Source of the DNA: Nannocystis bainbridge
GTDB lineage: Bacteria; Myxococcota_A; Polyangia; Nannocystales; Nannocystaceae
Direction: 5' to 3'
Assembly: GCF_028368995.1 (NCBI RefSeq)
Contig: NZ_JAQNDL010000001.1
Location: 2,496,001 to 2,560,000, forward strand
DNA: 64,000 nt
In this document: in pieces, positions 1,647 through 63,364 of the stretch
How the letters are laid out: every line of letters starts with the position of its first letter
Position numbering within the stretch: position 1 is the first letter of the stretch
The notes under the pieces: model-generated
The model's database searches: none
What the model saw: only the letters and a program-made list of their open reading frames with translations
Told to the model about the DNA's origin: nothing
Position numbers and translations under genes: made by a program

Positions 1647-1660
1647 TGTCCTTCAGGACA
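1647..1660. repeat. 14-bp palindrome TGTCC-N4-GGACA (solo copy)
   Basis: TGTCCTTCAGGACA, 3 nt past the stop of the agmatine deiminase gene. Confidence 0.85.
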
Positions 1661-1663: not shown

Positions 1664-2722
1664 TCAGGCTGCGGTGGACGGTCCCACGCTCAGCGGCCGC
1701 GGCAGTTGCATCGTCAGGCAATGCAGGCTGCCGCCCTGTTCGATGAGCGGCAGGCAATCGACGCCCACCACCTCGCGCCCGGGGAACACCCCGGCCAGCC
1801 GCGACAGCGCCTGCGCGTCGGCCGGGTCGTCATAGGTGGGCACCAGCACCGCGCCGTCGAGGATGAGGAAATTGGCGTAGGTCGCGGGCAAGCGGCGCCC
1901 GTCCTCGCCGAAGCGCGGGCGCGGCCACGGCAGCGGCACCAGCTCGTACGGTTCGCCGGCGGCGGTGCGCAGCCCGGCCAGCTCGTCGGCCATGGCCTGC
2001 AGCTCGTCCCAGTGCGAGTCGTCGGCGTCGGTGCAGCTCTGGTAGGCGATCGTGCGCGCGTCGCAGAGCCTGGCCAGCGTGTCGATGTGCCCGTCGGTGT
2101 CGTCGCCCTCGAGCCAGCCGCGGCGCAGCCACAGCACCCGCGTCGCGCCGAGGTGGCGCTGCAGCGCCGACTCGACCTCTGCGAGCCCGAGGCCGCTCCG
2201 GTGATCGGACAGCAAGCAGCGCTCGGTGGTGAGGATCGTGCCCTCGCCGTCGGACTCGACGCTGCCGCCCTCGAGGATAAGCGGCACGACCTCGAGCGGC
2301 GCCGCGCCGAAGGCCCCGAGCGCGTGCAGGCGCTGCGGGACGACGTCGTCCCGGGAAGCCGCGAACTTGCCGCCCCAGCCGTTGAACTCGAAGTCGAGCA
2401 CCCGCGGCGTCCCCGCGATCGTCACCGTCAGCGGCCCGTGATCGCGGGCCCAGGTGTCGTCGCAGGCGACCGCGTGCAGCCGCGCCCGCGCGTCGTCGAC
2501 CCCGGCCCGGCGCAGCAGCGCCCGCACGTGGCCGGCCAGAGCCGCGTCGTGGCACGCGATCACCACGACCTCGCGCAGCGCGATCTGCCGCGCGATCTCG
2601 ACGAACACCGGCTCGACCCGCGCCAGCATCGGGCCCCAGTCGCTGTCCGCGTGCGGCCACGTCAACATCACCCCGGCCTGCGGCGCCCACTCGGCCGGCA
2701 GTACACGTGTCTCTTCAGCCAT
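1664..2722 (-). CDS. Agmatine deiminase / porphyromonas-type peptidyl-arginine deiminase family
   Basis: PAEW...[46 protein letters not shown] and [10 protein letters not shown] (catalytic Cys) motifs. Confidence 0.93.
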
Positions 2723-2760
2723 GTCCCTTCGCCCCTGTCCCTTCAAACATGTCTCTTCAC
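2708..2760. repeat. 14-bp-phased array of degenerate TGTCC-N4-GGACA units
   Basis: TGTC at 2708, 2722, 2736 and 2750 (exact 14-bp phase); overlaps the start codon at 2720-2722. Confidence 0.8.
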
Positions 2761-3174
2761 TCAGGGCGCCGCCGCCAGCAGCGCCCGCAGCCCGATCAGC
2801 CCGCGGACCGACAGCCCCGGCGACCCCGGGACCCCCAGCCGCAGCGGCCCCTCGGCGTCCGGCAGCCCGAGCGCCACGATCACGTCGTCGCGTTTGACCG
2901 TGGCCGCGTCGATCGTCTTCGGCTCGCCGTCAGCCCCGGTCGCCTCGACGTCGACCCCCGCCGGGACCCCCGCCGCCAGCAGCGCCTCGCGCAGCCGCGG
3001 CCCGACGTGGCGAATGTCCCCGTCCTTCACCTCGACCTGCGGCAGCGCGGTCAGGCGGGCCGCCAGCAGCGACTCCGAGCGCGACGCCGTGTGCACCGCG
3101 AGCGCACCGGCCGGCGCCGCGGAGCAGGCGGACACGGCGAGCGCGACGGCGAACGCGAGCGACGGGCGGAGCAT
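2761..3174 (-). CDS. Hypothetical lipoprotein
   Basis: Signal peptide with lipobox (LAVSAC); GC3-rich codons. Confidence 0.65.
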   Translation of the reverse strand: MLRPSLAFAVALAVSACSAAPAGALAVHTASRSESLLAARLTALPQVEVKDGDIRHVGPRLREALLAAGVPAGVDVEATGADGEPKTIDAATVKRDDVIVALGLPDAEGPLRLGVPGSPGLSVRGLIGLRALLAAAP

Positions 3175-5817: not shown

Positions 5818-5824
5818 CATGAGA

Positions 5825-5838
5825 TGTCCTTCGGGACA
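5825..5838. repeat. 14-bp palindrome TGTCC-N4-GGACA
   Basis: TGTCCTTCGGGACA, 7 nt after the stop. Confidence 0.9.
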
Positions 5839-6099
5839 TATCGCATGACCCGCGGCCGCCGGCGCGCCATCGCGCCGGCGGCTCTATTGATACGTATTTT
5901 CAATGCTATGATGATTTCGCGCCGCGGCCCGATCGAGGGTCTGCACCGCCGGCCTCAGGGGGATCCGCCCGTCCGCATCGGCTCCGTCGTGCTGTCTCGC
6001 GCCTGCTCCGGGCGGTTTCAAACCTGGCCTTGACGCCCTGTCCCGACTACCCATCGCTGTCGCTTGACGGCCGGCCGTCCTCCGCGTCTCTTGAGCGAC

Positions 6100-8245: not shown

Positions 8246-8265
8246 ACATGTCCTCCGGGACATGT
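8246..8265. repeat. Extended palindrome ACATGTCC-TCCG-GGACATGT
   Basis: Read directly; lies between the stop codon and the terminator. Confidence 0.9.
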
Positions 8266-15778: not shown

Positions 15779-16750
15779 TCACGAGCGCTTGTACGTCAGC
15801 GCGTACTTGAGCGGCTCCGGCAGCCGGCTCGACGTGATCGTCACGCTCATCGTCAGCCTGTCGCCCGTCTCGTCGAGCGTGAACGTGCTGCGGCGCCCGC
15901 CGTCGTCGGCCTTGAAGTCCATCACCAGGCGACCCTTGACGATCGAGAACGCGACCGTCAGCGGCGAGCCGTCGTCGGAGGTCCACGCCACCGCCGAGCC
16001 GCCGATCGTGCCCGTGACCGTGCGCCCCGCGGCGAACGTCGCAGTCACTCTGGTGCCGTCGACCGCGAACGTGATCTGATCGCGGATGGGGTTGGCCGCG
16101 GTGAGCCGCTTGCGGCCGATCCCGCGGATCAGCGCGTTCAGCTGCTGCACCGTCGTCTCGATCGCCTCGGTCAGCTTGGTGCGCTGGGCCTCGCCGCCGG
16201 CGTAGCGGAACGTCCCGGCGAAGCGCGCCTGCTCGGGCTGGGCCGGCGCCGCCGGGGCTGGCGCGGGCGTCGGTGCAGGCGTCGGCGCGGGCGTCGGCGC
16301 GGGCGTCGGTTGCGGGATGTCCTTCGGGACAGGTTCCACCGGCGCGGGCGTCGTCGGTGACTTGTCCTTCGGGACAGGTTGATTCTCGCCCGTCGGCTTG
16401 ACCTTCTTCGCCGGCGCCGCCTTCTCGCCGTCCGGCTTGACCTCGGCGACCGCGCTCGCGGGGGTCGGCTCCGCGGTCGTCGGCCCCGGCTCACCCGCCA
16501 CCGTCGTCGGCGCCGGCTCGCCCGCCACCGCCGTCGTCGGCGCCGGTTCGGCGGCCGCGATCACCGGCACGGTCTTCGCCTCCTCCGCCGCGTCCTCGAC
16601 CTCCGCCTTGGCCCCCTTGGCCTCGTCGGCGAACGGATCGTCGAACTCCTCGGGCGCGGCCGCGGGCGCCGGCGGGGGCGTTGCTTCACCGCATCCGACA
16701 GCGAGGACGGTCGCGCACACGAGGACTCGGCGGAGCGGAACCAGGAGCAT
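15779..16750 (-). CDS. Hypothetical lipoprotein with long Pro/Ala linker
   Basis: LAVGC lipobox; PAPT repeats; globular C-terminal domain. Start placed at 16750 from the extended -10 element TGcTATGGT 7 nt upstream. Confidence 0.75.
   Translation of the reverse strand: MLLVPLRRVLVCATVLAVGCGEATPPPAPAAAPEEFDDPFADEAKGAKAEVEDAAEEAKTVPVIAAAEPAPTTAVAGEPAPTTVAGEPGPTTAEPTPASAVAEVKPDGEKAAPAKKVKPTGENQPVPKDKSPTTPAPVEPVPKDIPQPTPAPTPAPTPAPTPAPAPAAPAQPEQARFAGTFRYAGGEAQRTKLTEAIETTVQQLNALIRGIGRKRLTAANPIRDQITFAVDGTRVTATFAAGRTVTGTIGGSAVAWTSDDGSPLTVAFSIVKGRLVMDFKADDGGRRSTFTLDETGDRLTMSVTITSSRLPEPLKYALTYKRS
16318..16376. repeat. Two perfect TGTCCTTCGGGACA copies inside a CDS
   Basis: 16318-16331 and 16363-16376; both are read as PVPKD on the minus strand. 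Confidence 0.88.
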
Positions 16751-18768: not shown

Positions 18769-18880
18769 ACATGTCACATTGGACATGTCCTATATGCCAT
18801 GTCCAATGCGACATGTCATCGCTCGCAGCGAGCGGACGGCCGTGACGCCACCCGACCTTCGGGACATGTCCCCGAAAACA
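18769..18880. repeat. 14-bp-phased array forming a long inverted repeat, plus a further unit
   Basis: TGTC at 18772, 18786, 18800 and 18814; arms ACATGTCACATTGGACATG / CATGTCCAATGCGACATGT (1 mismatch); another unit at 18867. Confidence 0.88.
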
Positions 18881-20514: not shown

Positions 20515-20516
20515 CC

Positions 20517-20571
20517 TGTCCGAAGGAGCATGCCCGACCGGGCATGTCCCTTCGCACATGTCCCGAGCGCC
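20517..20571. repeat. 14-bp-phased array between convergent genes
   Basis: Units start at 20517, 20531, 20545 and 20559 and fill the whole intergenic gap. Confidence 0.85.
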
Positions 20572-24336: not shown

Positions 24337-24349
24337 CGCCGAGCCGAAA

Positions 24350-24509: not shown

Positions 24510-25649
24510 GTGGTGCCCGCGCCTGCCTCCACCCTCGCCCTCGTGCTCGCGCTCGCGCCCGCGGGCTTCGACCTCGAGTGGCTGGCCCCGGAAGGTTGCC
24601 CGGGAGCCGACGCGGTCGTCACGGCCACCGCCCGGCTGCTCGGCCGGCCCGCCGAGGTCGACCCCTCGCGGCGCGTCCGCGCCCGCGCCGTGGTCGTCCG
24701 CGAGCCCCGCGGCTTCCGCCTCGATCTCGAGCTGCAGAGCGGCGCCGGCCTCGATCGCCGCAGCCTCCGCGATCGCCGATGCCAGGTGCTGGCTGACGCG
24801 GCCGCCAAGATCGTCGCCACCGCCGTCGACCCCAGCCTCGCCGCCGGGGTCCCGCCGGTGCTGCCGCCGGAGTCCGATGAGACATGGCGTGAAGGACATG
24901 CCCCATCGAACATGTCCCCGAGTCTCGCCCCTCCGAATCCCCTGTCCGATGGGACATGGCGTGAAGCACCTGCCCCATCGACCATGTCCCCGGGGTCAGC
25001 CCCAGCGCTCGTCGAGGGCCCGCCCACGGCCCCCGTCTCGCCGCTCGCGCCCGCGGGAGACGACCCACTCGCTACGCCGCCCGCGGGCGACGATCCGCTC
25101 GCTACGCCCGCCCCGACGTCGCCCCCGCCCGACCCGCTGCGCGCCTCGCTGCGCCTCGCCGGCGTGTTCGACCAGGGCAGCCTGTCTGGCCCGACCGGCG
25201 GCCTCGCGCTCGCGCTCGGCGTCATGCGCCGGCGCTTCCGCGTCGAGCTCGGGTTCGCCGGCCTGGCCCCGCGCGAGGCCCGACCGGACCCGGCCGAGCC
25301 TGCCGGTGCACGCCTGTCCTTGTGGACAGCCACGCTCCGCGCCTGCGGCGTCGCCGGGCTGCGGCCGCGGCTCGAGCTCGGCGGCTGCGGCGGCCTCGAG
25401 GCCGGGGCCTTGCTCGGCGCCGGCTTCGGGGTCGAGGCCGCGCGTACGCGCGCGCAGCCGTGGCTCGCGGTGGTCGTCGGGCCCGAGCTCGCGGTCCCCG
25501 TCGCGCCGCGACTCGCGGTCACCCTCGGGGTCGACGCGGTGGTCCCGCTGGTGCGCCCGCAGTTCGTCCTGGACGGCGTCGGATCGGCGTTTCGCGCCAA
25601 CCCTGCGGCCTTCCGCGCCGTCCTCGGCCTGCAGCTTAGAATCCCGTGA
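24510..25649 (+). CDS. Hypothetical exported protein with C-terminal beta-strand (outer-membrane-like) region; first gene of the ECF operon
   Basis: GTG start after TACTCT; WLAPEGCP...C..LADAAA.IVA.AVDP N-domain; Pro-rich linker; amphipathic strands; overlaps the next start (GTGA). Confidence 0.7.
   Translation: MVPAPASTLALVLALAPAGFDLEWLAPEGCPGADAVVTATARLLGRPAEVDPSRRVRARAVVVREPRGFRLDLELQSGAGLDRRSLRDRRCQVLADAAAKIVATAVDPSLAAGVPPVLPPESDETWREGHAPSNMSPSLAPPNPLSDGTWREAPAPSTMSPGSAPALVEGPPTAPVSPLAPAGDDPLATPPAGDDPLATPAPTSPPPDPLRASLRLAGVFDQGSLSGPTGGLALALGVMRRRFRVELGFAGLAPREARPDPAEPAGARLSLWTATLRACGVAGLRPRLELGGCGGLEAGALLGAGFGVEAARTRAQPWLAVVVGPELAVPVAPRLAVTLGVDAVVPLVRPQFVLDGVGSAFRANPAAFRAVLGLQLRIP
24871..24998. 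repeat. Two 14-bp-phased arrays duplicated at 72 bp inside a CDS
   Basis: Units at 24871/85/99/913 and 24943/57/71/85; peptides ETWREGHAPSNMSP and GTWREAPAPSTMSP. Confidence 0.8.
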
Positions 25650-28391: not shown

Positions 28392-29243
28392 TCAGCGCGG
28401 AGTCTTCAGCTCGAGGCCCGGGTGCCAGATCGGCCGCGTACCGCGGGCCTGCTCCATCGCGTCGAGCAGGTGCAGCGCGCCCAGGCCGGTCGCTACGCAT
28501 GCCTTTTCGGCCATGTCCTTTTGGCCAGCCGAGATGAACACGTCGTCGGCGCGGGTCGCATAGACCGCGCACACCGCCCCGGCCACGAACCCGCGCAGCG
28601 TCGCCAGCGTCAGCAGGCACGCCGTCTCCATCTCGAGGTTCTTGACGCCCTGGCGGGCCAGGCGATCGACGATGTCGGGCTCGCGCGGCGCGAAGCCCTG
28701 GACCGCCCGGCCCTGGCCGGCGTAGAAGCTCGGCGACGTCGCCGTCACGCCGACGTGGTAGCGGTGCCCGATCGCGTCGGCGGCGGCCGCCAGGGCCATC
28801 ACCGCCTGCGGATCTGCGACGGCCGGGTACGAGTCCTCGACGTAGAACCGCGTCGTGTTCTCGAGCCGCAGCGCCGCCTGCGAGATCACCAGATCGCCGA
28901 GCGACATCCCCGGCTGCAGCGCGCCCGTGCTGCCGCAGCGGATCATCACCGGGCGCTCGACGCACTGGCACAGCTCGACGATCGCGATCTCGGTGCTGGC
29001 CGCGCCCATGCCGGTGCCCATCACGCTGACGCGCAGGCCCTGATGCACACCCGTGATCGTCACGAACTCGCGGTTCGAGCGCTCGAGCTCGACCTTCTCG
29101 AAGTTGCCGGCGACCCGGCGCGCGCGCTCGGGGTCGCCGACCAAAATCATGTGGCGGGCCACCTCGCCAGGCGCGAGAGCGATGTGATACTGCCGGCCCT
29201 CGGCGTCGCGGACGTTGGTGGCGGACTCGTAGCCTTGCGTCAT
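28392..29243 (-). CDS. udp: Uridine phosphorylase / nucleoside phosphorylase
   Basis: QYHI, LVGDPERA, NREFVTITG, GTGMG..STEIA..EL, IRCGSTGALQ, SFYAGQGR and NLEME motifs. Confidence 0.88.
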   Translation of the reverse strand: MTQGYESATNVRDAEGRQYHIALAPGEVARHMILVGDPERARRVAGNFEKVELERSNREFVTITGVHQGLRVSVMGTGMGAASTEIAIVELCQCVERPVMIRCGSTGALQPGMSLGDLVISQAALRLENTTRFYVEDSYPAVADPQAVMALAAAADAIGHRYHVGVTATSPSFYAGQGRAVQGFAPREPDIVDRLARQGVKNLEMETACLLTLATLRGFVAGAVCAVYATRADDVFISAGQKDMAEKACVATGLGALHLLDAMEQARGTRPIWHPGLELKTPR

Positions 29244-30882: not shown

Positions 30883-30884
30883 CA

Positions 30885-30954
30885 TGCGCAAAAGGACAGG
30901 TCCACAAGGACCTGTCCTTCACGGCATGCCCTTCGGGTCATGCCCGAAGGGTCA
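30885..30954. repeat. Five-unit 14-bp-phased array between convergent genes
   Basis: Units at 30885, 30899, 30913, 30927 and 30941 fill the intergenic gap from stop to stop. Confidence 0.88.
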
Positions 30955-31932
30955 TCAATAACGGCGGGCCGGCGGCGGCGGGGCGTACTGGTTGTGGCGC
31001 TCGCTGCTGGCCGGGAACGGCCGCGGGTCGTGCGGCGGCGGCGGCGAGACGTAGGGATCGACGATGACGCCGCGGGCGCGCAGGTTCTCGGCGCTGTCGT
31101 AGTAGACCGTCATCATCACGTCGGGCCGGCGCTTGGCGCGGCGCTCGAACGTCACCTCGCGCACCGAGCTGTGGGTCGTCTCGCCGTACTGCGTGCCGAG
31201 CCGCGCGCTACGGCCGTCGTCGAGCGCCTGCTCCTGGGCGTAGCCGCCGCTCGGGGGCGCCGACGCGGCCCGCTTGGCCGCCGGCGCGTCGGCCGGCGCC
31301 GGCGCCGGTCGGACCTCGGCCGCGCCCGCGCGGCTGCTGGTGTCGTAGTCGCCGTAGAACGGCTCGTAGTAGGGCCGCGTGGCGATCGGCGCCGGCGGGG
31401 TCCGCGGCCGGCGCGGCTGGTGCTCCTTGAACACCGCCACCCCGATCACGCCGACGTGCTGCGGCGTGCCCCAGCGCCCCGAATAGCTGTTGCCGACGTC
31501 GGTGAAGCGGAACGCCGCCACGTGGTCCAGCGACTGACGGAAGCCCTCGATCAGCACCGAGCCGTAGGGCTCGAGCACGTAGCCGCGCTGGGTCTTGTAG
31601 TTGCCGAGCTGGCCGCTCACCACGTCGCGCCCGTCGACCGTCACCACCGCCTCGACGCGCTCGCCCGAGTTGTTGCGGACGCGGATGTTGTAGCGCTCGC
31701 CCATCTGCCCGGCGACGAACATCGAGCCGCGGTGCTGATAGGTCGGCAGCGTCCCGCCGTACCCGCTCTCGATCGAGAGCGACACCTCCTGGCCCCACGG
31801 CGGCGCCACCATCTGCCCCGAATCGCCCCACGGCCGGTGGGCCTCGGCGACGCCTGGTCCGCAGGCGAACACCGCCGTGCCGAGGAGAAGGGTCGCGATC
31901 AGGCCGAAGGACTTGATAGTGGGTCGTCGCAT
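30955..31932 (-). CDS. Exported hypothetical protein
   Basis: Signal peptide; GERYNIRVRN...VVTVDGRDV..G...GYVL.PY..V.IEGFRQS...VAAFRF...VGVIGVAVFKE globular domain. Confidence 0.8.
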   Translation of the reverse strand: MRRPTIKSFGLIATLLLGTAVFACGPGVAEAHRPWGDSGQMVAPPWGQEVSLSIESGYGGTLPTYQHRGSMFVAGQMGERYNIRVRNNSGERVEAVVTVDGRDVVSGQLGNYKTQRGYVLEPYGSVLIEGFRQSLDHVAAFRFTDVGNSYSGRWGTPQHVGVIGVAVFKEHQPRRPRTPPAPIATRPYYEPFYGDYDTSSRAGAAEVRPAPAPADAPAAKRAASAPPSGGYAQEQALDDGRSARLGTQYGETTHSSVREVTFERRAKRRPDVMMTVYYDSAENLRARGVIVDPYVSPPPPHDPRPFPASSERHNQYAPPPPARRY

Positions 31933-34757: not shown

Positions 34758-34773
34758 GGACCGCCGGCGGGCG

Positions 34774-34843
34774 TGCCCGAACGAACATGCTCGAACGGAC
34801 ATGCCCCAGCGCGCATGTCCCGATGAACATGCTGCGAAGGACA
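34774..34843. repeat. Five-unit 14-bp-phased array between convergent genes
   Basis: Units at 34774, 34788, 34802, 34816 and 34830. Confidence 0.85.
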
Positions 34844-34862
34844 GGCTCGGCTCGCCCGCGGC

Positions 34863-40739: not shown

Positions 40740-41246
40740 TGTCCCGAAGGACAGCATGACGAGCACGAGCCTCACGCCCGCGCTCGCCTCACCTGTCCCC
40801 GCGGACATCCGCCGCTCCGCGACGAGCCCTGTCGCTCTGCGTGCTCCGGCCCAACGGCTCGCCTCGCTGTCCTCGAGGCCGCATGGGTCTCGGCTGGGCT
40901 CGCAACGCCGCTCGCGCTCTGTCTCCTTCGCCCCCCACGGGTGGGCCTCGCTTCGCTACCTGTCCTCGAGGCCAGCTCACCCTTCCGCATCTGTGTCGTC
41001 CGCGACTGGGCGCTCGCCCGCGACTTTTCCGCCTGTCTACAAGGACAGCCCAGATCGCCTCCGAATCACCTGTCCCTTCGGACATCTCATCTATTCCCCC
41101 CTCACCGGCCTCTGCAGCCGTCCTCGGCTCCACCGCCGCGCGCGCCGCGATCCGTCTCCCATTTCATCTGTCCCCGAGGACACATCATTTTTCTCCCGGT
41201 TCTCGGCTCCCCGCGGTCGCCGCCGCATCACATGTCCCGAGGGACA
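40740..41246. repeat. Cluster of dispersed TGTCC-N4-GGACA copies in a long intergenic region
   Basis: Copies at 40740, 40794, 40868, 40961, 41034, 41071, 41169 and 41233, plus weaker ones at 40830 and 40920. Confidence 0.88.
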
Positions 41247-46042: not shown

Positions 46043-46044
46043 CA

Positions 46045-46086
46045 TGCTCTTTCCGTCATGTCCTTAAAAACATGTCTCGATAGACA
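46045..46086. repeat. 14-bp-phased array spanning the stop and next start
   Basis: Units at 46045, 46059 and 46073; the ATG at 46058 is the CATG junction. Confidence 0.82.
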
Positions 46087-47533: not shown

Positions 47534-47544
47534 CTCTCGGGACA

Positions 47545-47600
47545 TGTCCTCTCCGACATGCCCTTTCTTACATGTCTTTGAAGGCATGTCCGATCGGACA
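47545..47600. repeat. Four-unit 14-bp-phased array
   Basis: Units at 47545, 47559, 47573 and 47587 (last one TGTCCGATCGGACA). Confidence 0.88.
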
Positions 47601-47740
47601 GTCATTCACAGCGTCGGCAGTGAGCGTCCTGCAGAGCGGCCCCTGCGAGCGCGTTCTCCCGCATCGTCGGCTCGCTCCGTCGACGCGGCACCTCGAGCGT
47701 CCAGCCCGGCCGCCGCTGCGAGCATCCCCTCGCGCGCGAG

Positions 47741-48076: not shown

Positions 48077-49759
<1,683 letters not shown>

Positions 49760-49761: not shown

Positions 49762-49824
49762 TGTCCTCCGGGACAGGCAGACGCGGACGCTGCGGCGCGC
49801 GGCCACAACCTGTCCTCCGGGACA
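49762..49824. repeat. Two identical TGTCCTCCGGGACA copies
   Basis: 49762-49775 and 49811-49824, directly after the prfC stop. Confidence 0.9.
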
Positions 49825-49923: not shown

Positions 49924-52668
49924 ATGAGGGTCATGCCCGTCCAGCCCGGGATCGACGGCGACGCCGACACTCTCGGCGCCGACCGGTTGTCCGCGCCGTC
50001 GCCGCCCGACCCGACGCGCGAGACCGACGGTGGCTCGTTCCTTAGCACCGAGGCCGCGGGCGAGCCCGGCGGCACCCGGCGCAGCCGCGGCCCCGCCACC
50101 GGCGACGAGATCGGCGACTTCACGCTCGAGCGGCGCCTCGGCGAGGGCGGCATGGGCGTGGTGTTCGCCGCGTGGAGCCACAAGCTGGCCCGCCGGGTCG
50201 CCATCAAGATCCCGACCCGCAGCCTCGACGAGGTCGCGCGCGCCCGCATCGTCCGCGAGGCCCAGAGCCTGGCCCAGGTCGACCACCCCCACGTGGTCCG
50301 CGTGTACGAGATCGGCGAGGAGGGCGAGAACCTCTTCATCGCCATGGAGCTGGTGGAGGGCGTCACCCTCCGCAGATGGCTGACGGAGGCGCCGCGCGGC
50401 TGGCGGGAGATCGTCCAGATGTACCTGCAGGCCGGCCACGGGCTGGCGGCGGCGCATCACCAGGGGCTGCTGCACCGCGACTTCAAGCCGAGCAACATCC
50501 TGGTCGACGGCGAGGGTCGCGTGCGCCTGATCGACTTCGGCCTCGCGCGCATGCGCGACTCGAGCCGCGACATCGCGGCGACGGTCGACGGCGACGAGCC
50601 CTCGGGCCCCGAGTTCGTGCTGACGAGCCGCGCCGGCACGCCGCGCTACATGGCGCCCGAGGTCTACGACACCGGCGCGACGGTCGACGCGCGCAGCGAC
50701 CAGTACTCGTTCTGCGTCGCGCTGTGGGAGGCCCTGTTCGGCGAGCTGCCCGACTGGCGCCGCTCGGCCCCGCAGCCGAAGACGGTGCCGCCGTGGCTGC
50801 TCGCGCTGCTCCGCCGCGGCCTGGCGCTCGACCGCGAGGGCCGGTTCCCGACCATGGACGCGCTGCTGGCCGAGCTGACCGCCGGCCTGCAGCCGCGCCG
50901 CCGCCGGCCGCTGGCGCTCGTGGCCCTCGCCGCGACCGTCGGGGCCGGGCTCGGCGCGGCGCTCCAGACCCTCGGCCCGGCCGAGGCCTGCGCCGAACCG
51001 GCCGCCCTCGCCGACGCGCTGTGGCCGGCCGACCAGCGCGCGGCCCTGCGAGAGTCTGGCCATTCGGTCATGTCCGTAGAGACATGGTTCTCGGAACATG
51101 TCCTCGAGTGGGCCGACGCCAGCGCCCAGGCCTGCCGGACCCGCGACGAGCTCGCCCGCGCCCGCGCGGCGACCTGCCTCGACGAGCGCGAGCAGGCGCT
51201 GCGCGCGGTCGCGTCCGCGCTGGTGGCCGCGCCCGCGGGCCCCGAGGGCGCACCGAAGCCCGGCTGGGACGGCCGCCTGGCCCTGTGGGACCGCGCGCTG
51301 CCGCCGGCCGCCGACTGCGTCGACCCGCGCCGCCTGGCCTTCACCGTCGATCCGCCGGTCCATGTCGACCTGTCCGAAACGACATGGCTCGAAGAACAGC
51401 TGCACCTGGGCGCCGCGCTCGCGCTCGCGGGCGACCCGGCGGCCGCGGCGGCGCGCCTGCACCCGGCCCGCGTGCGCGCCGAGCAGGCCGGTGATCGCTG
51501 GCGCCAGGCCCGGGCCGACCTCGCGCTCGGCGTCGCCGCCATGCACCGCGGCGACGAGACCGGCGCGCGCCGCCGCTTCGAGACCGCGGCCAGCGACGCC
51601 GGGGCCGTGGGCGACGATTTCCTGGCCGCCGACGCCTGGCGCTGGCTGGTGTTCGTCGACGCGGCCCGCGACCCCGACCCCGAGCACGCGCTGCTGCTGC
51701 TGCCGCACGCCGAGAGCGCGCTCTACCGCATCGGCCAGGCGACCGGGCCGCGCATGATCGACCTGCAGCTGTCGGCGGCGTGGGCCGAGCTGCGCCGCGG
51801 CGACCTCGACGCAGCCCACGCCCGCCTGGCCCGCGCGCTGCAACAAGGCAAGGCCGACGAGGCGCTGGCCGCACGGATCTTGCGACACCACGCAGAGCAG
51901 GCCCACCAGCGCGGGCAGTCGCTGCCGGCCGTCGATCTGGCCCGCCAGGCGCTGAGCCTGCAGCTGCGCCGCGAGGGCCCGGACTCGCGCGGCGTCGCCG
52001 ACACCCGCCAGAGCCTGGCCCGCTATCAGCTCGCCGCCGGTCAGTACGCCGAGGCCGAAGCCAACCTGCGCGCCGCCCTGGCCGTCGCCGCCGACGACCC
52101 CGACGCCCGCGAGCGCGCCAGCCTCGAGCTCGACCTCGCCGTCGTCCACTACACCCGCGACGACCTCGCCGCCGCGCGCGCGGCCGCCGATCGCGCCGCC
52201 TCGGCCTTCGCCGAGGTCGTCGATCCGCTGGCCGGTCGCGCCGACCGGATCGCGCTCGCCAAGCTCCGCGGTGACCTGTCCCTCGGGACAGACGATCGCG
52301 CCGCCGTGCGTCACTACGAGGTCGGCCTCGCGCTGGTCGCCGCCGGCCCCGCGCTGCCGGAGACGCGCGACAACGCGGTCGCCATGCGCGTCGGGCTCGC
52401 GGCCGCGCGCCGTCAGCTCGGCGACCTGCCGGGCGCCCTCGACGCCATGCGGCACGCGCTCGCCGACCTCGCGGGCGTCGCCGCGGACGTCGCCGCTTAC
52501 GCCCATGGCACCGCCGCCGAGCTCGATCTCGGGCGCGGCGCCAGGCGCGAGGCCGAGGCCCACTGTCGCCGCGCGCTCGCGCTGCTGCGCGACGACGACC
52601 CGATGGCCCGCGAGCTGCGCCAGCTGCTCGTACGGATCCGAGCCGCCGGCCCCGCGCGGCGAAAATAA
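49924..52668 (+). CDS. Ser/Thr protein kinase with TM segment and TPR-like C-terminus
   Basis: LGEGGMGVV, VAIK, HRDFKPSN, DFGLA, GTPRYMAPE and DQYSFCV motifs. Confidence 0.95.
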   Translation: MRVMPVQPGIDGDADTLGADRLSAPSPPDPTRETDGGSFLSTEAAGEPGGTRRSRGPATGDEIGDFTLERRLGEGGMGVVFAAWSHKLARRVAIKIPTRSLDEVARARIVREAQSLAQVDHPHVVRVYEIGEEGENLFIAMELVEGVTLRRWLTEAPRGWREIVQMYLQAGHGLAAAHHQGLLHRDFKPSNILVDGEGRVRLIDFGLARMRDSSRDIAATVDGDEPSGPEFVLTSRAGTPRYMAPEVYDTGATVDARSDQYSFCVALWEALFGELPDWRRSAPQPKTVPPWLLALLRRGLALDREGRFPTMDALLAELTAGLQPRRRRPLALVALAATVGAGLGAALQTLGPAEACAEPAALADALWPADQRAALRESGHSVMSVETWFSEHVLEWADASAQACRTRDELARARAATCLDEREQALRAVASALVAAPAGPEGAPKPGWDGRLALWDRALPPAADCVDPRRLAFTVDPPVHVDLSETTWLEEQLHLGAALALAGDPAAAAARLHPARVRAEQAGDRWRQARADLALGVAAMHRGDETGARRRFETAASDAGAVGDDFLAADAWRWLVFVDAARDPDPEHALLLLPHAESALYRIGQATGPRMIDLQLSAAWAELRRGDLDAAHARLARALQQGKADEALAARILRHHAEQAHQRGQSLPAVDLARQALSLQLRREGPDSRGVADTRQSLARYQLAAGQYAEAEANLRAALAVAADDPDARERASLELDLAVVHYTRDDLAAARAAADRAASAFAEVVDPLAGRADRIALAKLRGDLSLGTDDRAAVRHYEVGLALVAAGPALPETRDNAVAMRVGLAAARRQLGDLPGALDAMRHALADLAGVAADVAAYAHGTAAELDLGRGARREAEAHCRRALALLRDDDPMARELRQLLVRIRAAGPARRK

Positions 52669-55623: not shown

Positions 55624-56112
55624 ATGACCGTCGCCGTCGGCAGCCCCGCCCCCACCTTCGATCTCTTCGACAACGCCAAGCAGCGCGTCACCCTCGCCGC
55701 CCAGCGCGGCAAGACCGTCGTGCTCGCGTTCTTCCCGGCCGCCTTCACCGCCGTCTGCGAGAAGGAGCTGTGCTCCTTCCGTGACTCGCTGACCGCCCTC
55801 AACGACCTCAACGCCGCCGTGTTCGGCGTCTCGGTCGACGCGCCGTTCTCCAACAAGGCGTTCGCCGAGCGCAACGGCCTCAACTTCCCGCTGCTGTCCG
55901 ACTACGCCCGCGAGGCCGTGCGCGCCTTCGGCGTCGCCCACGACGACTTCGCCGGCATGCCCGGCTACACCGCCGCCAAGCGCTCGGTGTTCGTGATCGA
56001 CCCCGAGGGCGTGGTCCGCTACGCGTGGGTCGCCCCCAACCCCGGCGTCGAGCCCAACTACGACGAGGTCAAGGCCGCCGTCTCGCAGATCGGCGCAGGC
56101 TCGGCTTCCTGA
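55624..56112 (+). CDS. Peroxiredoxin (AhpC/TSA family)
   Basis: AAGGAG RBS; VGSPAP.F.L, FFPAAFTAVC (PxxxTxxC), GVSVD, FPLLSD and KRSVFVID motifs. Confidence 0.93.
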   Translation: MTVAVGSPAPTFDLFDNAKQRVTLAAQRGKTVVLAFFPAAFTAVCEKELCSFRDSLTALNDLNAAVFGVSVDAPFSNKAFAERNGLNFPLLSDYAREAVRAFGVAHDDFAGMPGYTAAKRSVFVIDPEGVVRYAWVAPNPGVEPNYDEVKAAVSQIGAGSAS

Positions 56113-56166: not shown

Positions 56167-56194
56167 AGCCCGCGGCCGCGCCGCGGGCTTTTTT
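56167..56194 (+). terminator. Rho-independent terminator
   Basis: AGCCCGCGGC-CGC-GCCGCGGGCT followed by TTTTT. Confidence 0.88.
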
Positions 56195-56197
56195 ATG

Positions 56198-56245
56198 TGG
56201 CACTTCAGACATGTCGCTTTGGACATGTCCATTCAAACATGTCAT
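56198..56245. repeat. 14-bp-phased array directly after the terminator
   Basis: Units at 56198, 56212, 56226 and 56240 with ACATGT junctions. Confidence 0.88.
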
Positions 56246-56352
56246 GCCGCTCGCTCGCGGCGTGGGCGGTCGCCCGACCCGCGTCGGTGAACGCGCGCGA
56301 CCACACGCGAGTCGCACGCCAGCCCGCGCGCGGCTCGGAGTAAAGTGCCGGG

Positions 56353-58044
56353 ATGAGCGCCCGTATCGTCGCCGCCCGGCCGTGCGCGCCGCAGTCCGCC
56401 GCAGCGCCCCCGTCGCGCCGTGAAGCCGACCCGCCGGGCGCCCCGCAGCCCGCCCTGCCCCGCACGCGCACGCGGCCGCGCCGGCGAGCGAGCCCACCGA
56501 GCAGCTCGCCGGCCGTCTTGCTGGCCGCCCTCGCGCTCGCGCCCGCCTGCTTCAGCGACGACGGCTACCACCCGGCCGGCGCCACCGCGCTCACCACCGA
56601 CGCCGACGCCACCAGCACCACGACCACCACCGGCACCACCGGCCCCGAGCCGCCCGCGACCACCACCAGCACCACCGGCGAGCCGGCGCCGGTGTGCGGC
56701 GACGGCGTCGTCGACCCCGACGAGGACTGCGACGACGGCAATCGCGACGACGGCGACGCCTGCCTCGCGACCTGCGTCGCGGCCGGCTGCGGCGACGGCG
56801 AGGTGTGGCTCGGCGTCGAGGCCTGCGACCAGGGCGCGGCCAACCATCCGACCGCGCCCGACACCTGCAGGCCGACCTGCGAGCTGCCCGCGTGCGGCGA
56901 CGGCGGCCTCTACGTCGGCCCGCTCGGCCCCGACATCGAGGTGCCCACCGGCGAGGAGGCGATCGGCGACGGCGACGACGCCCCGCGGATCCTCGGCGCC
57001 GCCGCCGACGGCAGCTTCGTCGTCGCCTGGCGCGTCACCAACATCGTCGCCAGGGTCCAGGCCCGCCGCGTCGATCCGTCCGGCGAGCCGCTCGGCGAGG
57101 TGATCGAGCTGGTCGAGCAGCCGTTCCTGCAGGTCCGCGACCCCGTCGTCGCGGCCCTGCCGAACGGCGACTTCGCGGTCGCCTGGCAGTCGCAGTTCGA
57201 GGATCCGCAGCTGCTGGTCCGCGGCGTCGCGGCCGACGAGCTCGCGCCCGCCTTCAAGCTCACCAACCGCGTCGCCGCCTCGCCCGCGCTCGCCCTCGAT
57301 CCGTCCGGCGCCCTGATCGCGGCCTACCGCGCCGGCGGCACCAAGCAGACGACCCAGATCTACCTGCGCCGCTTCCCGCTGTTCACCGAGTCCGGGAGCC
57401 CGGACGAGCAGGCGATCAGCGAGCACACCGCGGGCGCCGCCGGCTCGCCGACGATCGCGGTCCACCCCGACGGCAGCTTCCTGGTGGCCTGGAGCGACCC
57501 CGAGGGCGCGATCGTCTATCGCCGCTTCACCCCCGACCTGGTCGCCGGGCCGCTGGTCCCCACCGGCCTCCACGTCGGCGGCGGCACCAGCAACAGCGCC
57601 CTGCCGTGGATCGGCGCCGCCTTCCAGCCGACCACCGGGACCGCCGTGATCGCCGGCCGCGACCCCGACGACAGGCTCGTGCTGCAGCAGTTCGACCCCG
57701 GCGACCTCGCCCGCGGCCGCGTCCAGGTCGACGACCTGGACGCTTTGTACATCCCCTTCGTCGACGTCGCCAGCGACCCGTGGGGCAACCTCGCCGTCGC
57801 CTGGTCGACCTGCGGCGGGCCCGAGGAGGTCGAGCCGAATTGCGCCGACCTGGCCTCGGTGTCCTCGTTCCGGTGGTTCTACGCCGACCTGACCCCGCAG
57901 GGCCCGGCCGCCGTGGTCACCACCCGCGAGGGCATGCCCCACCCGCTGTCGCTCGCCGTCGCCGCCACCGGCGCCGCCGCGGTCGCCCGCGTCGAGGACA
58001 ACAAGGTCCTCCTCAACATGTCCCCGGTGCAATGTCCTCCATGA
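56353..58044 (+). CDS. Lipoprotein with Myxococcus cysteine-rich repeats and propeller-like C-domain (paralog A)
   Basis: LAPAC-FSD; CGDGVVDPDEDCDDGN; repeated DGSFVVAW. Confidence 0.85.
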   Translation: MSARIVAARPCAPQSAAAPPSRREADPPGAPQPALPRTRTRPRRRASPPSSSPAVLLAALALAPACFSDDGYHPAGATALTTDADATSTTTTTGTTGPEPPATTTSTTGEPAPVCGDGVVDPDEDCDDGNRDDGDACLATCVAAGCGDGEVWLGVEACDQGAANHPTAPDTCRPTCELPACGDGGLYVGPLGPDIEVPTGEEAIGDGDDAPRILGAAADGSFVVAWRVTNIVARVQARRVDPSGEPLGEVIELVEQPFLQVRDPVVAALPNGDFAVAWQSQFEDPQLLVRGVAADELAPAFKLTNRVAASPALALDPSGALIAAYRAGGTKQTTQIYLRRFPLFTESGSPDEQAISEHTAGAAGSPTIAVHPDGSFLVAWSDPEGAIVYRRFTPDLVAGPLVPTGLHVGGGTSNSALPWIGAAFQPTTGTAVIAGRDPDDRLVLQQFDPGDLARGRVQVDDLDALYIPFVDVASDPWGNLAVAWSTCGGPEEVEPNCADLASVSSFRWFYADLTPQGPAAVVTTREGMPHPLSLAVAATGAAAVARVEDNKVLLNMSPVQCPP

Positions 58045-58207
58045 CATGTTCTCGTGGACATGTCGCATGGAACATGCGCCGATAGACATGTCTTAAAGGG
58101 CATAACGTGGCGCTCGCTGCTGACTTCGACGCCCCACGGCCCCGCCTGACCTCACGAGCCGCCGAGCCTGCGGCCCACATGCCCCAAAGAACATGTCCCT
58201 CTCGCCA
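58019..58207. repeat. Six-unit 14-bp-phased array straddling a stop codon, plus a two-unit array
   Basis: Units at 58019, 58033, 58047, 58061, 58075 and 58089; then 58180 and 58194. Confidence 0.9.
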
Positions 58208-58257: not shown

Positions 58258-59817
58258 ATGTCGACCCGGGCGATCGCCGGAGCTGGAGCGCTGGTCCTCG
58301 CCTGCGCCGCCGCGGCCTGCTTCAGCGACGGCGGCCTGCACACCAGCGGCTCCCCGTCGACGACCTCGACCTCGAGCACCTCGACCGCCACCACCGCGGA
58401 CGAGCCCACCTCGAGCACCACGACCACGACTTCCACCGGCGAGCCCCTGCCCATCTGCGGCGACGGCCAGCTCGATCCGGGCGAGCCGTGCGACGACGGT
58501 AACCGCGACGACGGCGACGCCTGCCGCAACGACTGCACCCTCGCCGCTTGCGGCGACGGCGTGGTCCAGCGCGGCGTCGAGCAGTGCGACGACGGGCCCG
58601 ACAACCACCCGGGCGAGCCGGACGCCTGTCGACCCGACTGTCACAAGCCCGCCTGCGGCGACGGGGCGCTGTACGTCGGCCCGCTCGGCCCGCCGGTGAT
58701 CGCCGCCAGCGAAGGTAGCGTCGCCCAGAGCGACGACGCCCCGCGGGCCATCGGCGTCGACGCCGGCGGCACCTTCTCGGTCGCGTGGCGCGTCGAAGGG
58801 CCGATCGATCGCCTCGACGTCCAGACCGTCGGCGCCGACGGCAGCCTCGTCGGCGAGCCGCTCGACCTCGCCGATCCGCCGACCCAGCTCGTCCGCGATC
58901 CGGTGATCGCCGTGGCCCCGGGCGGCGATCTGGCGCTCGCGTGGGAGATCGGCGCCAACGCGGGCGACATCCTCGTGCGCGGCGTCGTCGCCGGCGTCGC
59001 CGAGCCCGGCCTCAACGCGCTCGACGTCACCGGCCCGGCGCAGGTGTCGCCGGCGATCGCCCTCGACGACGTCGGCCGGCTGACCCTCGCCTACGTCGAC
59101 GAATTCGAGTCCGACCTCGCCCACATCTTCGTGCGCCGGCTCGCCAACTTCGATCCCACCGCCCCGCCCGAGCTTCCGATCAGCGAGCACGCGCTCGGCG
59201 TCCCCGGGGCGCCCAGCGTCGCCGCCTGGCCCGACGGCGGCTTCGTGGTCGCCTGGGGCGATCCCGGCGGCGCCATCGTCTACCGCCGCTTCGCCGTCGA
59301 CGGCACCTCTGGCCCCGTCGTCGCCAGCGACCTCCGGACCGGCGGGATCGCCCTCGCGGGCAGCGCCAGCCCGTGGAGCGGCCTCGCGGTGACACCCGAT
59401 CTGCAGATCGTGATCGGCGGTGTCGGCGTCGACGCTCGCGTCTCCTTGCAGACCTTCGACCTCGCCGACGTCCCCGGCGCGATCGTCCCGGTCGCCGACA
59501 CGCCGCGGATGCACGCCCCGTTCATCGACCTCGGCAGCGACGCGTCGGGCAACCTCGCCGTCGCCTGGGCCGAGTGCGGCGACGCCGAAGCGCCTGCCGC
59601 GGAGGACTGCAGCGGCCTCGCCTCCGATCTGCGGCTGCGATGGTTCCGCGCCGACCTCACCCCGCACACCGCGGTGACCGCCGTGCACACCGCTGAGACC
59701 GGCGGCCCGCCCGCGATCGGCCTCGCGGTCGCGCCCTCGGGGATCACCGGCGTCACCTACCTCGACGGCGGCGCCGTCGTCGTCCGCGTCGCCGGCTTGC
59801 AATGTCCGGCCCCGTGA
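58258..59817 (+). CDS. Lipoprotein with Myxococcus cysteine-rich repeats (paralog B of 56353-58044)
   Basis: AAAC-FSDG; [23 protein letters not shown]; shares [32 protein letters not shown] and QCP* blocks. Confidence 0.85.
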
Positions 59818-60859: not shown

Positions 60860-60897
60860 TTTTTACAATGGTAGGACCTGTCCCGAAGGACCTATCT

Positions 60898-63204: not shown

Positions 63205-63364
63205 TGTCCCGCGGGACAGCTCGCCTCGCCGACCCCGCGAGGCTCGAGTTGTCCCGCAGGCCCCCTCGCCGCGGAGCCGTGACTCACGACTCCGCGCTCG
63301 TCATTTCCGGCGCGCCGCCGCGCCGTCGCTACCACCGGTCCCAGAGGACATGTCCCGCAGGACA
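63205..63364. repeat. TGTCC-N4-GGACA copies between convergent genes
   Basis: TGTCCCGCGGGACA at 63205; tandem pair GGTCCCAGAGGACA-TGTCCCGCAGGACA at 63337-63364. Confidence 0.88.

Follow-up and report, generated by a model that had tools for sequence, protein, structure and literature searches.

Spacerless operator units in strict phase are known from the MetJ met-boxes, the omega-protein heptads and the Fur hexamers, where the units are degenerate, more so in longer arrays, and where the arrays occupy one or a few promoter, operator or centromere regions. Tandem short intergenic units at many loci are found as the STRR heptamer arrays of cyanobacteria and the MIRU minisatellites of mycobacteria, and MIRUs abut or overlap flanking stop and start codons. 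REP elements protect mRNA 3′ ends and bind gyrase, IHF and Pol I, and they are reportedly located close to stop codons. REP/BIME sequences are described as short imperfect palindromes that occur in hundreds to thousands of lineage-specific copies, mostly in 3′ intergenic positions, either singly or in regularly built clusters, that are maintained at orthologous loci and that have the capacity to fold into hairpins as RNA or single-stranded DNA (PMC3337134). HIP1 (GCGATCGC) of cyanobacteria is described as 15- to 300-fold over-represented and conserved within and between frames, with a proposed role in chromosome structure and a function that is not known (PMC5861425).

Here we analyze a 64-kb stretch of Nannocystis DNA, referred to as the window, which contains an array of six 14-bp units with seven CATG-type junctions at 58018..58104; the seventh junction (58101-58104) is degenerate and reads CATA. 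With moderate confidence, we regard this 84-bp array as a member of a lineage-specific, REP/BIME-like family of short palindromic repeats acting at gene 3′ ends. Like the REP/BIME elements of Enterobacteria and Pseudomonas, the family consists of lineage-specific short palindromes that are clustered, present in high copy number and found at 3′ ends. Unlike them, its unit is 14–18 bp and fully symmetric rather than 20–40 bp, its copies abut with a 4-bp overlap rather than alternating in orientation with linkers, and 20 of its 45 copies lie inside genes; the 5′ flank is G-A-C-(C/A) rather than the GTAG-type tetranucleotide of REP, and no RAYT or transposase domain was found among the 54 predicted window proteins scanned. 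With HIP1 it shares the character of a hyper-abundant, lineage-restricted palindrome that is enriched within reading frames beyond codon usage and conserved between genomes, whereas HIP1 is an uninterrupted octamer for which neither abutting phased arrays nor stop anchoring have been described. The abutting of short units in strict phase recalls the MetJ, omega and Fur operator arrays, but the present arrays lie behind stop codons and the elements number 0.7 per kb. Finally, STRR and MIRU units are direct repeats of other lengths and sequences from unrelated lineages, whereas the units described here are palindromic.

Site grammar and phasing of the palindrome

The basic unit of the family is an interrupted palindrome of 18 bp, C(C/A)TGTCC-N4-GGACA(G/T)G. 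With at most one mismatch, it occurs 45 times in the window compared with 1.95 expected (sd 1.32, maximum 5, 100 shuffles), and 20 copies in the window are exact. In 20 cases TGTCC and a downstream GGACA are separated by 4 bp, whereas none of the other spacings from 0 to 44 is seen more than twice. The flanks of the core extend the site, with a 5′ consensus of GAC(C/A) (among the 45 copies, G in 23, A in 28, C in 37, and C or A in 25 and 19) and a 3′ consensus of (G/T)G. A position-weight scan at 12 bits or more returned 30 matches in the window, compared with 0–5 in five Markov-1 controls. A second control, based on the commonest 5-Nk-5 palindrome at each of 80 loci, was uninformative because G+C-rich words such as CGCGC dominate high-GC DNA.

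This family of 18-base palindromes appears to be previously undescribed. No match at the gathering score was obtained when the window was scanned with Rfam 15 and no tRNAs were found in it, ruling out a known RNA family or a tRNA-derived element. Literature searches on Nannocystis repeats or palindromes and on myxobacterial REP, RAYT or REPIN sequences gave no description of the element among the matches listed. The 10-mer GGACATGTCC retrieved only p53 response-element and primer papers among the matches listed, which we took as coincidence.

Copies occur both singly and in abutting runs. As abutting copies overlap by 4 bp and CATG is the sole sequence that two such copies can share, the runs adopt an exact 14-bp phase. 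Among the 242 CATG tetranucleotides in the window, 26 pairs are separated by 14 bp, 16 by 28 bp and 7 by 42 bp, far above chance, compared with 0 and 1 pairs at lags of 13 and 15 bp and at most 6 at the other lags from 1 to 89 bp. The initial annotation of this DNA had predicted autocorrelation peaks at these three lags genome-wide, and had proposed overlapping 18-bp sites with 4 bp in common, a proposal that matches both the fixed N4 spacing and the flank consensus. All six units that it quoted are in the sequence, although they run from 58018 to 58101 and the start it gave, 58019, was off by one; the eight further arrays that it named are likewise present and in phase. In total the window holds about twice as many arrays, since it also contains arrays or pairs at 5818-5841, 8247-8264, 16318-16376, 24883-24998, 28498-28527, 49762-49824, 60877-60892, and 63337-63364, together with a cluster of seven single copies at 40740-41246. 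The suggestion that arrays are more degenerate than solo copies agrees with the counts, as 1 of 39 array units is exact and nearly all of the 20 exact copies of the window lie outside long arrays, but the contrast is subject to bias, since solo copies that have degenerated escape recognition.

Each consensus site comprises two 7-bp half-sites with an 11-bp distance between their centers, as in operators bound by helix-turn-helix dimers. One possible reading, which we nonetheless consider unlikely, is that the elements are duplex-DNA sites, each with half-sites separated by one helical turn, of a dimeric sequence-specific protein that would bind cooperatively on the 14-bp-phased arrays at 120 degrees per dimer and would act not as a classical regulator but as a nucleoid-associated, insulating or roadblock protein. 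The half-site separation, the absolutely fixed N4 spacing, and the strong constraint within arrays on CATG, the sequence common to two overlapping sites, are all consistent with such a protein. At the same time, half-sites at each junction overlap by 4 bp, such that adjacent dimers would be expected to compete for the same bases, and a density of 0.7 per kb would amount to thousands of sites per genome. The filament of dimers turned by 120 degrees is a matter of arithmetic and is disfavored by the location of the elements. The MetJ, omega and Fur arrays provide a precedent for the filament idea.

Placement behind stop codons and within genes

Gene positions were taken from a crude GC3-based call made for the present analysis. 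In co-directional gaps of at least 60 nt that contain an element, the first element began 2–17 nt (median 8) past the upstream stop in 9 of 9 cases, whereas the median distance to the next start was 252 nt (combined P = 5 × 10−6). Elements were found in 3 of 5 convergent gaps, two of which are filled end to end, in 9 of 23 co-directional gaps and in 1 of 6 divergent gaps, and the TGA stop often forms part of tGAC(A/C)TG. This placement is not that of promoters or operators, and such nucleotide-scale anchoring behind stops would be unexpected for sites of a DNA-binding regulator. A classical cooperative regulator of the arrays is unlikely, because the elements lie behind stops rather than at promoters and would number in the thousands; of the earlier interpretation, the site grammar and the phase hold and the argument from spacing does not.

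At the 58-kb locus itself, units 1 and 2 of the array form the end of the CDS at 56353-58044, namely its final nine codons and its TGA stop (58042-58044), which sits inside tGACATG. Downstream, a degenerate pair around GAACATGTCC (58178..58206) lies 52–80 nt upstream of the start of gene 58258-59817 and is kept together with its flank in N. pusilla. Single elements are found 3 nt past the stop of minus-strand gene 1664-2671 (1647..1660, exact), 7 nt past the stop of gene 3640-5817 (5818..5841, ATGTCC-TTCG-GGACAT), and 10 nt past the stop of the paralogous gene 6091-8238 (8247..8264, ACATGTCC-TCCG-GGACATGT, fold z = −4.1). Directly behind the stop of minus-strand gene 2761-3174 is an array of 4–5 units (2706..2765), composed of near-identical direct repeats (TGTCYCTTC) that fold poorly as RNA. 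Nine nucleotides past the stop of gene 17577-18761 begins an array with 4 junctions (18770-18815), which forms a single feature (18770..18880) with a degenerate triple at 18852-18880. The cluster at 40740..41246 comprises seven dispersed single elements (40740, 40794, 40961, 41034, 41071, 41169, and 41233), the first of them 17 nt past the stop of gene 39766-40722.

Further along the window, a three-unit array (46043..46086) spans both the stop of gene 44513-46042, a TGA that is part of tGACATG, and the beginning of the following gene, with its ATG (46058) and first codons, while a four-unit array (47543..47602) starts 10 nt past the stop of that gene (46058-47533). Two exact elements, both with a TCCG loop, occupy 49762..49824, the first one 2 nt past the TGA stop of prfC (48077-49759). 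An abutting pair (63337..63364) lies 8 nt past the stop of minus-strand gene 63373-63831, with an additional exact copy nearby (63205-63218). Amongst convergent gaps, those bounded by stops 20514 and 20572 and by stops 30882 and 30955 are spanned entirely by arrays (20515..20571 and 30883..30956), the gap between stops 34757 and 34863 holds an array with 6 junctions (34772..34845), and that between stops 60859 and 60898 holds one element (60877..60892). The array of 3–4 units at 56197..56252, about 100 nt upstream of gene 56353-58044, is directly preceded by a canonical hairpin and T-run (56167-56194), and it may therefore not be in a 3′ UTR.

Copies are not confined to these gaps: 25 of the 45 are extragenic and 20 lie inside predicted genes, giving a density of 3.4 per kb between genes compared with 0.35 per kb within them. 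In-gene copies use all three frames (3, 9, and 8) and the peptides they encode differ. Coding sequences contain 7 exact copies, about 30-fold more than the 0.2 (maximum 2) obtained in 200 synonymous-codon shuffles, and 20 copies with at most one mismatch, 6-fold more than the 3.5 (maximum 11) obtained there. The use of three frames and the failure of synonymous shuffles to reproduce the copies rule out a peptide motif as their source. The motif is thus over-represented within reading frames beyond what amino-acid sequence and codon usage account for, as in HIP-type repeats, and this enrichment in every frame also speaks for a protein-binding site. In-gene features include a pair of units (28498..28527) in the C-terminal tail of the minus-strand phosphorylase gene 28392-29243, past its Pfam domain, and three phased junctions (51069..51100) inside, and in frame with, the kinase gene 49924-52668; other copies are at 21683, 25315, 26600, 29272, 29614, 32151, 36126, 38093, 38107, 40362, 46151, 51371, 52277, and 52892. 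Two exact elements 45 bp apart (16318..16376) have an uncertain coding status, and two three-unit arrays (24883..24998) lie in an open frame stretch that carries no codon-phase signal.

Enrichment both between and within genes raises the prospect of a HIP1-like hyper-abundant palindrome linked to DNA methylation or to the marking of self DNA, which we judge very improbable. On this reading an orphan methyltransferase would act on the CATG/ACATGT core, and the motif would be kept genome-wide for chromosome organization, for repair or for recognition of the cell's own DNA during uptake. Cyanobacterial HIP1, over-represented within and between frames, offers a precedent (PMC5861425), parts of the literature link HIP1 to methyltransferases and transformation, and CATG is the most conserved part of the present element. 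Yet isolated copies mostly read CCTG...CAGG, so that CATG is not needed for the element. The 10-fold higher density between genes sets the element apart from HIP1, as does its anchoring at stop codons when compared with HIP1 as described in PMC5861425, and no methyltransferase domain or gene was detected among the 54 predicted proteins scanned in the window.

Turnover of the arrays and lineage distribution

At least one close relative was among the matches listed, and the comparison covered one region of it, N. pusilla locus L001. This syntenic locus carries arrays at matching places, and the differences between counterparts are whole 14-bp units. They are present at 4 of the 4 orthologous non-coding loci compared, despite the fact that the surrounding spacer DNA can no longer be aligned between the two species. 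The 58-kb array has 6 units in the window and 4 in N. pusilla (28 bp), the 56-kb array has one more unit in N. pusilla than in the window (14 bp), the 46043 array has three units in the same phase, and the counterpart of the 47543 array has four units with the register shifted by one unit. Thus, the claim that the junctions never slip finds support here: changes of 14 or 28 bp were seen at 2 of 4 loci and changes of 1–2 bp at none of the 4. The single copies at 40740-41246 turn over rapidly, as their positions are not kept except for the last, and the prfC 3′ locus (49762) carries a longer composite repeat in N. pusilla, where such composites in L001 measure about 92 bp.

Similarity among the units bears on how the phase arises. 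Over the 10 non-CATG positions, identity averaged 0.459 within arrays compared with 0.401 between arrays (permutation P = 0.001), while reverse-complement similarity was no higher within arrays than between them (P = 0.36). The units are degenerate, as the initial annotation had observed, but not unrelated. Together with changes in copy number by whole units, this similarity indicates that the phase is accounted for by tandem duplication and later drift, with no need to invoke selection on spacing, which runs counter to the earlier view that spacing was conserved rather than sequence. Local duplications also carry elements along, namely the 45-bp tandem repeat at 16295-16380, which contains the two exact elements there, the 72-bp repeat at 24870-24998, which contains the two three-unit arrays, and the composite repeats of L001.

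These observations bring into play a neutral or selfish origin, in which the palindrome would have spread by itself or through biased repair or mobilization and the arrays would be minisatellite-like by-products of slippage in tolerant DNA behind genes, without use to the cell. Direct-repeat similarity within arrays, whole-unit changes between species, the rapid turnover of single copies in the 40.7–41.2 kb spacer and the element-bearing duplications are what it would produce; we nevertheless consider it improbable. Arrays persist at four non-coding loci amid spacers that cannot be aligned, with CATG identical in 31 of 32 positions across species compared with 46–63% elsewhere in the units (arms 22 of 48, N4 20 of 32), although pairs were aligned on the CATG phase and the CATG identity is therefore inflated. 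Across array units, CATG is retained at 33–39 of 39 per position. The arrays change by whole-unit steps as slippage minisatellites (VNTRs) do, but their units are not near-identical (identity 0.46) and CATG is under position-specific constraint. Placement 2–17 nt past stops, the non-random loop composition near stops and the enrichment within genes also argue against a neutral by-product.

The element family is lineage-restricted. The window has 0.70 elements per kb and N. pusilla L001 has 0.83, compared with 0.017 per kb in 79 other loci (1.32 Mb), and the density falls to 0 at the Sorangium, Polyangiaceae, and two Anaeromyxobacter loci.

Folding of the elements and a proposed role at gene 3′ ends

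We next consider whether RNA structure accounts for the conservation of the palindrome. Compared with dinucleotide shuffles, arrays gave z = −4 to −9 in 8 of 16 folds. When the cores were kept and the spacers replaced, 2 of 13 arrays folded better than the resulting null, both of them in convergent gaps, and 3 of 13 folded worse than at least 98% of it. In the 20515 array, the spacers complement one another and give a long hairpin (fraction of null folds with equal or greater stability 0.007), and the 30883 array forms two strong nested hairpins (z = −8.8, fraction of null at least as stable 0.003). Long hairpins from complementary spacers are nevertheless rejected as a general rule, since 11 of 13 arrays gain nothing relative to the spacer null. 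The flanking pair at −1/+1 showed no covariation (18 C-G, 15 A-T, 17 C-T, 9 A-G; P = 0.43), giving no support to an extension of the stem through it, and the transcribed strand showed no excess of wobble pairs (single mismatches in stems: G.U 4, A.C 5, other 14). Within arrays, conservation is highest at CATG and lowest at the pairs that close the loops, whereas a row of small hairpins would be expected to show the reverse. Unlike what defines a REP element, pairing of the arms is thus not reflected in compensatory change by any of these three measures; what is kept is the sequence of the half-sites rather than their pairing, in agreement with a protein-binding site.

Loop composition points in another direction. 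On the transcribed strand, loops of intergenic elements read UNCG in 8 of 35 cases compared with 2 for the complement CGNA (sign test P = 0.055). UNCG loops occur in 7 of 22 elements near stops and 0 of 20 in genes (P = 0.009), where composition alone would give 0.018 per element; one of the seven (L001 20965) overlaps a stop codon and is doubtful. Such strand-specific loops near stops would not be selected by a protein on duplex DNA. The elements resemble intrinsic terminators in lying a few nucleotides past stops and in convergent gaps and in offering a stable hairpin, in some cases with a C(UNCG)G tetraloop. In contrast to such terminators, many arrays gain no stability from their spacers and the stem sequence is common to all copies. 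A U-tract follows only two elements (47543 and 41169), these being the elements among the five canonical hairpin and T-run sites found by the scan, and such sites are no commoner than chance (5 compared with 3.2 expected in 20 kb).

The REP/BIME-like reading would combine these observations as follows. Arrays would arise by tandem duplication or slippage of a 14-bp unit just 3′ of genes and then drift, with the palindromic cores, and above all the shared CATG, kept by constraint. The elements would be transcribed as the 3′ end of the upstream gene, and their self-complementary cores could form hairpins, with 5-bp stems singly or 8–10 bp when two cores pair, that may end or protect the transcript. 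That a constant sequence is kept, and not mere structure, might reflect common descent together with recognition of the palindrome by a dedicated factor, for which a DNA- or RNA-binding protein or a mobilizing enzyme would be candidates. A bolder proposal, which we regard as improbable and offer as speculation, is that a putative palindrome-specific protein sits side by side on arrays behind stops as a bidirectional terminator or insulator, with the in-gene copies serving a second, chromosome-wide role. Such a protein-dependent terminator would act in a genome with almost no canonical hairpin-plus-U terminators.

If the density of the window holds genome-wide, a 12-Mb Nannocystis genome would contain several thousand copies of one 18-bp palindrome, which would rank the family with the densest repeats known in bacteria. 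The family is unusual in its build, with phased arrays overlapping by 4 bp, anchoring at stop codons and enrichment in genes, and it joins traits of REP (3′ ends, clusters) with traits of HIP1 (in-gene enrichment, sequence over structure). The functions of REP and HIP1 are still debated. The present family would provide an experimentally simple test of repeat function, since compensatory mutants and ±1-bp mutants should behave in opposite ways under the RNA-hairpin and the protein-site readings. The arrays are potential strain-typing loci, and the elements are relevant to the annotation of these very large, natural-product-rich genomes, since they flag the 3′ ends of genes and may themselves contribute a stop or start codon.

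Structure and phasing of the repeat

The 14-bp phasing of CATG-type junctions in this window is real, statistically overwhelming and richer than the initial annotation described, and it is not an artefact of picking by eye. The six units on which that annotation rested are present, with the first A at 58018, one base ahead of the start it had reported, and the sixth unit ending at 58101; all eight further arrays that it named were found in the phase claimed. Within the window, the CATG autocorrelation it had anticipated peaks at 14, 28 and 42 bp (26, 16 and 7 pairs, respectively, among 242 CATG), with no pair at 13 bp, one at 15 bp and at most 6 at every other lag up to 89 bp. The nine arrays comprise 39 units, of which 38, 33, 38 and 39 keep the junction bases C, A, T and G, respectively; T(27)C(33)C(27) adjoins the junction on one flank and G(20)G(25)A(22) on the opposite one. 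A symmetrised weight matrix returned 30 sites of at least 12 bits, compared with 0–5 in five Markov-1 controls, and the scan roughly doubled the number of arrays and pairs originally listed.

The element is clearest in single copies, such as ATGTCC-TTCG-GGACAT at 5824 and ACATGTCC-TCCG-GGACATGT at 8247. TGTCC-N4-GGACA occurs in 20 exact copies and in 45 copies with at most one mismatch, the latter against 1.95 in dinucleotide-preserving shuffles (sd 1.32, maximum 5, n = 100), and GGACA follows TGTCC at a distance of four in 20 cases and at any other distance from 0 to 44 in no more than two. Among the 45 copies, position −2 is C in 37, position −1 is C (25) or A (19), and position +1 is T (23) or G (21), preferences that extend the element to 18 bp, C(C/A)TGTCC-N4-GGACA(G/T)G. 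Where the outer four bases of two such elements coincide, CATG alone fits both, and the period becomes 14; the fixed N4, the flanks and this overlap thus back the proposal of 18-bp sites sharing 4 bp. Equivalently, the arrays are runs of 14-bp palindromes set directly end to end. The array core, GGACATGTCC, exactly matches the half-site consensus of the p53 response element of animals; of the 15 literature matches listed, out of 47 for this 10-mer, seven concern p53 and none is bacterial, and we take the resemblance as coincidence.

Placement at gene ends and within genes

We placed the 45 copies on a crude GC3-based map of 53 genes checked against Pfam, which assigned 25 to intergenic gaps and 20 to predicted genes. 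Intergenic copies are tied to reading-frame 3′ ends on the scale of nucleotides. Of the co-directional gaps of 60 nt or more, nine contain an element, and in every one the first element lies 2–17 nt (median 8) past the upstream stop, compared with a median of 252 nt to the next start (combined P = 5 × 10−6 against uniform placement). Elements occupy 3 of 5 convergent, 9 of 23 co-directional and 1 of 6 divergent gaps, and the arrays at 20515–20571 and 30883–30956 each span the whole of a convergent gap, from one stop to the other. In six cases read directly from the sequences (5815, 20512, 30880, 46040, 49757 and 58042), the TGA stop lies inside the outer half-site, tGAC(A/C)TG. Arrays can also supply coding sequence: units 1 and 2 of the 58018 array form the last nine codons of the gene at 56353–58044, and the ATG at 46058, where a putative lipoprotein begins, is that of the second unit of the 46043 array.

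Several neighbouring features were recorded alongside. The tandem paralogous genes at 3640–5817 and 6091–8238 (weak PD40 match) are identical over the last ~47 nt of coding sequence, and each is followed by its own, differently sequenced element, at +7 and +10 from the stop. On the + strand, 56167–56194 comprises a 10-bp G+C stem and six T, the only clear canonical terminator between 40 and 60 kb; it directly precedes the 56197 array in a gap mapped as divergent, and upstream of it lies a conserved stretch without an assigned gene (55901–56096). GC skew stays negative in all 2-kb bins except the first, even though the + strand carries 36 of the 53 predicted genes.

The 20 in-gene copies are spread over the three frames (3, 9 and 8), and the peptides that they encode are unrelated. 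In 200 shuffles of synonymous codons gene by gene, with protein sequence and codon usage preserved, 0.2 exact copies (maximum 2) and 3.5 one-mismatch copies (maximum 11) were expected, compared with 7 and 20 observed. Five copies (16318, 16363, 24943, 24985 and 25315) fall in two stretches of doubtful coding status, and the excess persists after their removal. This excess indicates that genes, too, favour the motif as nucleotide sequence, at a density roughly a tenth of that between genes. Local duplications of 45 bp (16295–16380) and 72 bp (24870–24998) carry elements along; at 24840–25020 the codon-phase G+C signal of the open frame 24333–25649 vanishes, so this ‘gene’ may be two genes or hold an inserted array.

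Distribution and origin of the arrays

The Pfam content of the window is myxobacterial (DUF4215 cysteine-rich repeats, a Ser/Thr kinase with TPR, FecR-VIT-VWA, OmpA); a 99-aa protein with a TIR-domain match (PF13676, E = 2.5 × 10−6; 53793–54092, minus strand) overlaps by 8 nt the frame of a 157-aa protein of no known family (54085–54558). The RF3 protein (48077–49759) shares 95% identity with its counterpart in Nannocystis pusilla Na p29, the sole close relative among the matches listed in the RF3-based search. The N. pusilla locus (21.7 kb) is collinear with 37981–59759, its genes being 82–96% identical in DNA. It shows 9, 5 and 3 CATG pairs at lags 14, 28 and 42, six exact copies and 0.83 copies per kb with at most one mismatch, compared with 20 exact copies and 0.70 per kb in the window. 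Each of 79 other loci (1.32 Mb) has fewer than three CATG pairs at lag 14, with no exact copy and 0.017 copies per kb overall; among them, the Sorangium, Polyangiaceae and two Anaeromyxobacter loci have no pair at any of the three lags and no copy.

Within the shared region, every array has an N. pusilla counterpart at the same place, and in none of the arrays compared did we find a 1- or 2-bp phase slip. The 46043 array has three units there in identical phase, the 47543 array four units with the best alignment shifted by one, the 56197 array one additional 14-bp unit, and the 58018 array four units rather than six, a 28-bp difference; the in-gene triple at 51069 is kept as coding sequence and the degenerate pair at 58178–58206 along with its flank. 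Over eight unit pairs in non-coding DNA, identity is 31 of 32 positions for CATG (a figure partly circular, as alignment was by CATG phase), 22 of 48 for the half-site arms and 20 of 32 for N4. Neighbouring genes match at 85% of their third codon positions, and the remainder of the array-bearing spacers is essentially unalignable. Of seven single copies at 40740–41246, only the last has a positional counterpart. Elements thus turn over fast, yet arrays persist at their loci.

Units are more alike within an array than between arrays, both over the ten non-CATG positions (0.459 versus 0.401) and in the spacer (0.415 versus 0.326; permutation P = 0.001), with no such excess in the reverse-complement register (P = 0.36). 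Taken with array lengths that differ by whole units between the species, this points to tandem duplication or slippage followed by drift; the initial annotation was therefore wrong to argue against slippage, and on such an origin strict phase needs no selection on spacing. What does need explanation is that CATG is kept while the rest of the unit drifts.

Other non-coding features were noted in the comparison. A ~270-bp block at 41229–41498 (~3172–3455 of the N. pusilla locus), just upstream of lgt (41499–42569), is near-identical between the species and preceded by an unalignable spacer; it has no match in Rfam and could be a leader, small RNA or small ORF. Downstream of prfC, N. pusilla carries 4–5 tandem copies of a ~92-bp composite repeat (11690–12130 of its locus) with one palindromic element each, the window only two elements 49 bp apart (49762 and 49811). 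The long spacer upstream of prfC holds tandem repeats of 43–49 bp (47741–47896; ~2–2.4 copies, 77–90% matches), unrelated in sequence to the palindromic family and unalignable with N. pusilla.

DNA site, RNA hairpin and known repeat families

An RNA reading is favoured by the position behind stops and in convergent gaps, by stable folds (8 of 16 well below dinucleotide shuffles, z −4.1 to −8.8), by loop sequence and by the scarcity of canonical terminators (5 found versus 3.2 expected in 20 kb, two of the five being these elements). Closed by a C-G pair, UNCG makes the very stable tetraloop C(UNCG)G. Composition predicts 0.018 UNCG loops per element; on the transcribed strand they occur in 8 of 35 intergenic elements versus 2 with the complement (sign test, P = 0.055), and in 7 of 22 near stops, one doubtful as it overlaps a stop codon, versus 0 of 20 in genes (P = 0.009). 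When cores were kept and spacers exchanged, however, only 2 of 13 arrays folded better than the null, and three were less stable than 98% or more of it. Covariation is absent from the bases on either side of the 5-bp stem (P = 0.43), stems with one mismatch have G.U in 4 cases, A.C in 5 and another combination in 14, and conservation in arrays is highest at the junction and lowest at the would-be loop-closing positions. With the fixed spacing and the favouring in genes, these results argue for sequence recognition and against RNA pairing. Half-site centres lie 11 bp apart, as in dimeric helix-turn-helix operators. The protein filament originally proposed for the phased arrays, which we hold as a minority reading, has precedents in the MetJ, omega and Fur operator arrays. 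Those cooperative repressor arrays sit in promoters, and the 4-bp overlap of neighbouring sites here means that adjacent dimers would compete for the same bases. Our own reading, drawn from sequence comparisons, is that the element is probably recognised by sequence, and that copies behind stops may additionally be tuned as RNA hairpins.

Among the papers listed for Nannocystis or myxobacterial repeats, for REP/RAYT palindromes and for the core 10-mer, none describes the family. The closest kind is REP/BIME (REPIN), described as short lineage-specific palindromes of high copy number at gene 3′ ends, single or in regular clusters (PMC3337134). The Nannocystis element lacks the GTAG head of REPs and gives no evidence of their arm pairing, and nearly half of its copies lie in genes rather than extragenically. 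A further REP hallmark is a RAYT gene, and no transposase domain turned up in the 54 predicted window proteins scanned. With cyanobacterial HIP1, as portrayed in PMC5861425, the element shares over-representation in reading frames and conservation of sequence rather than structure; unlike HIP1 in that portrayal, it has an interrupted palindrome, builds phased arrays and is tied to stops. We put at about even chances a REP/BIME-like role, with the elements acting at gene 3′ ends. The family is a lineage-specific extragenic palindromic repeat, and its build is unusual in combining 18-bp sites, joined through 4-bp overlaps into arrays of 14-bp phase, with stop-codon anchoring and in-gene enrichment.
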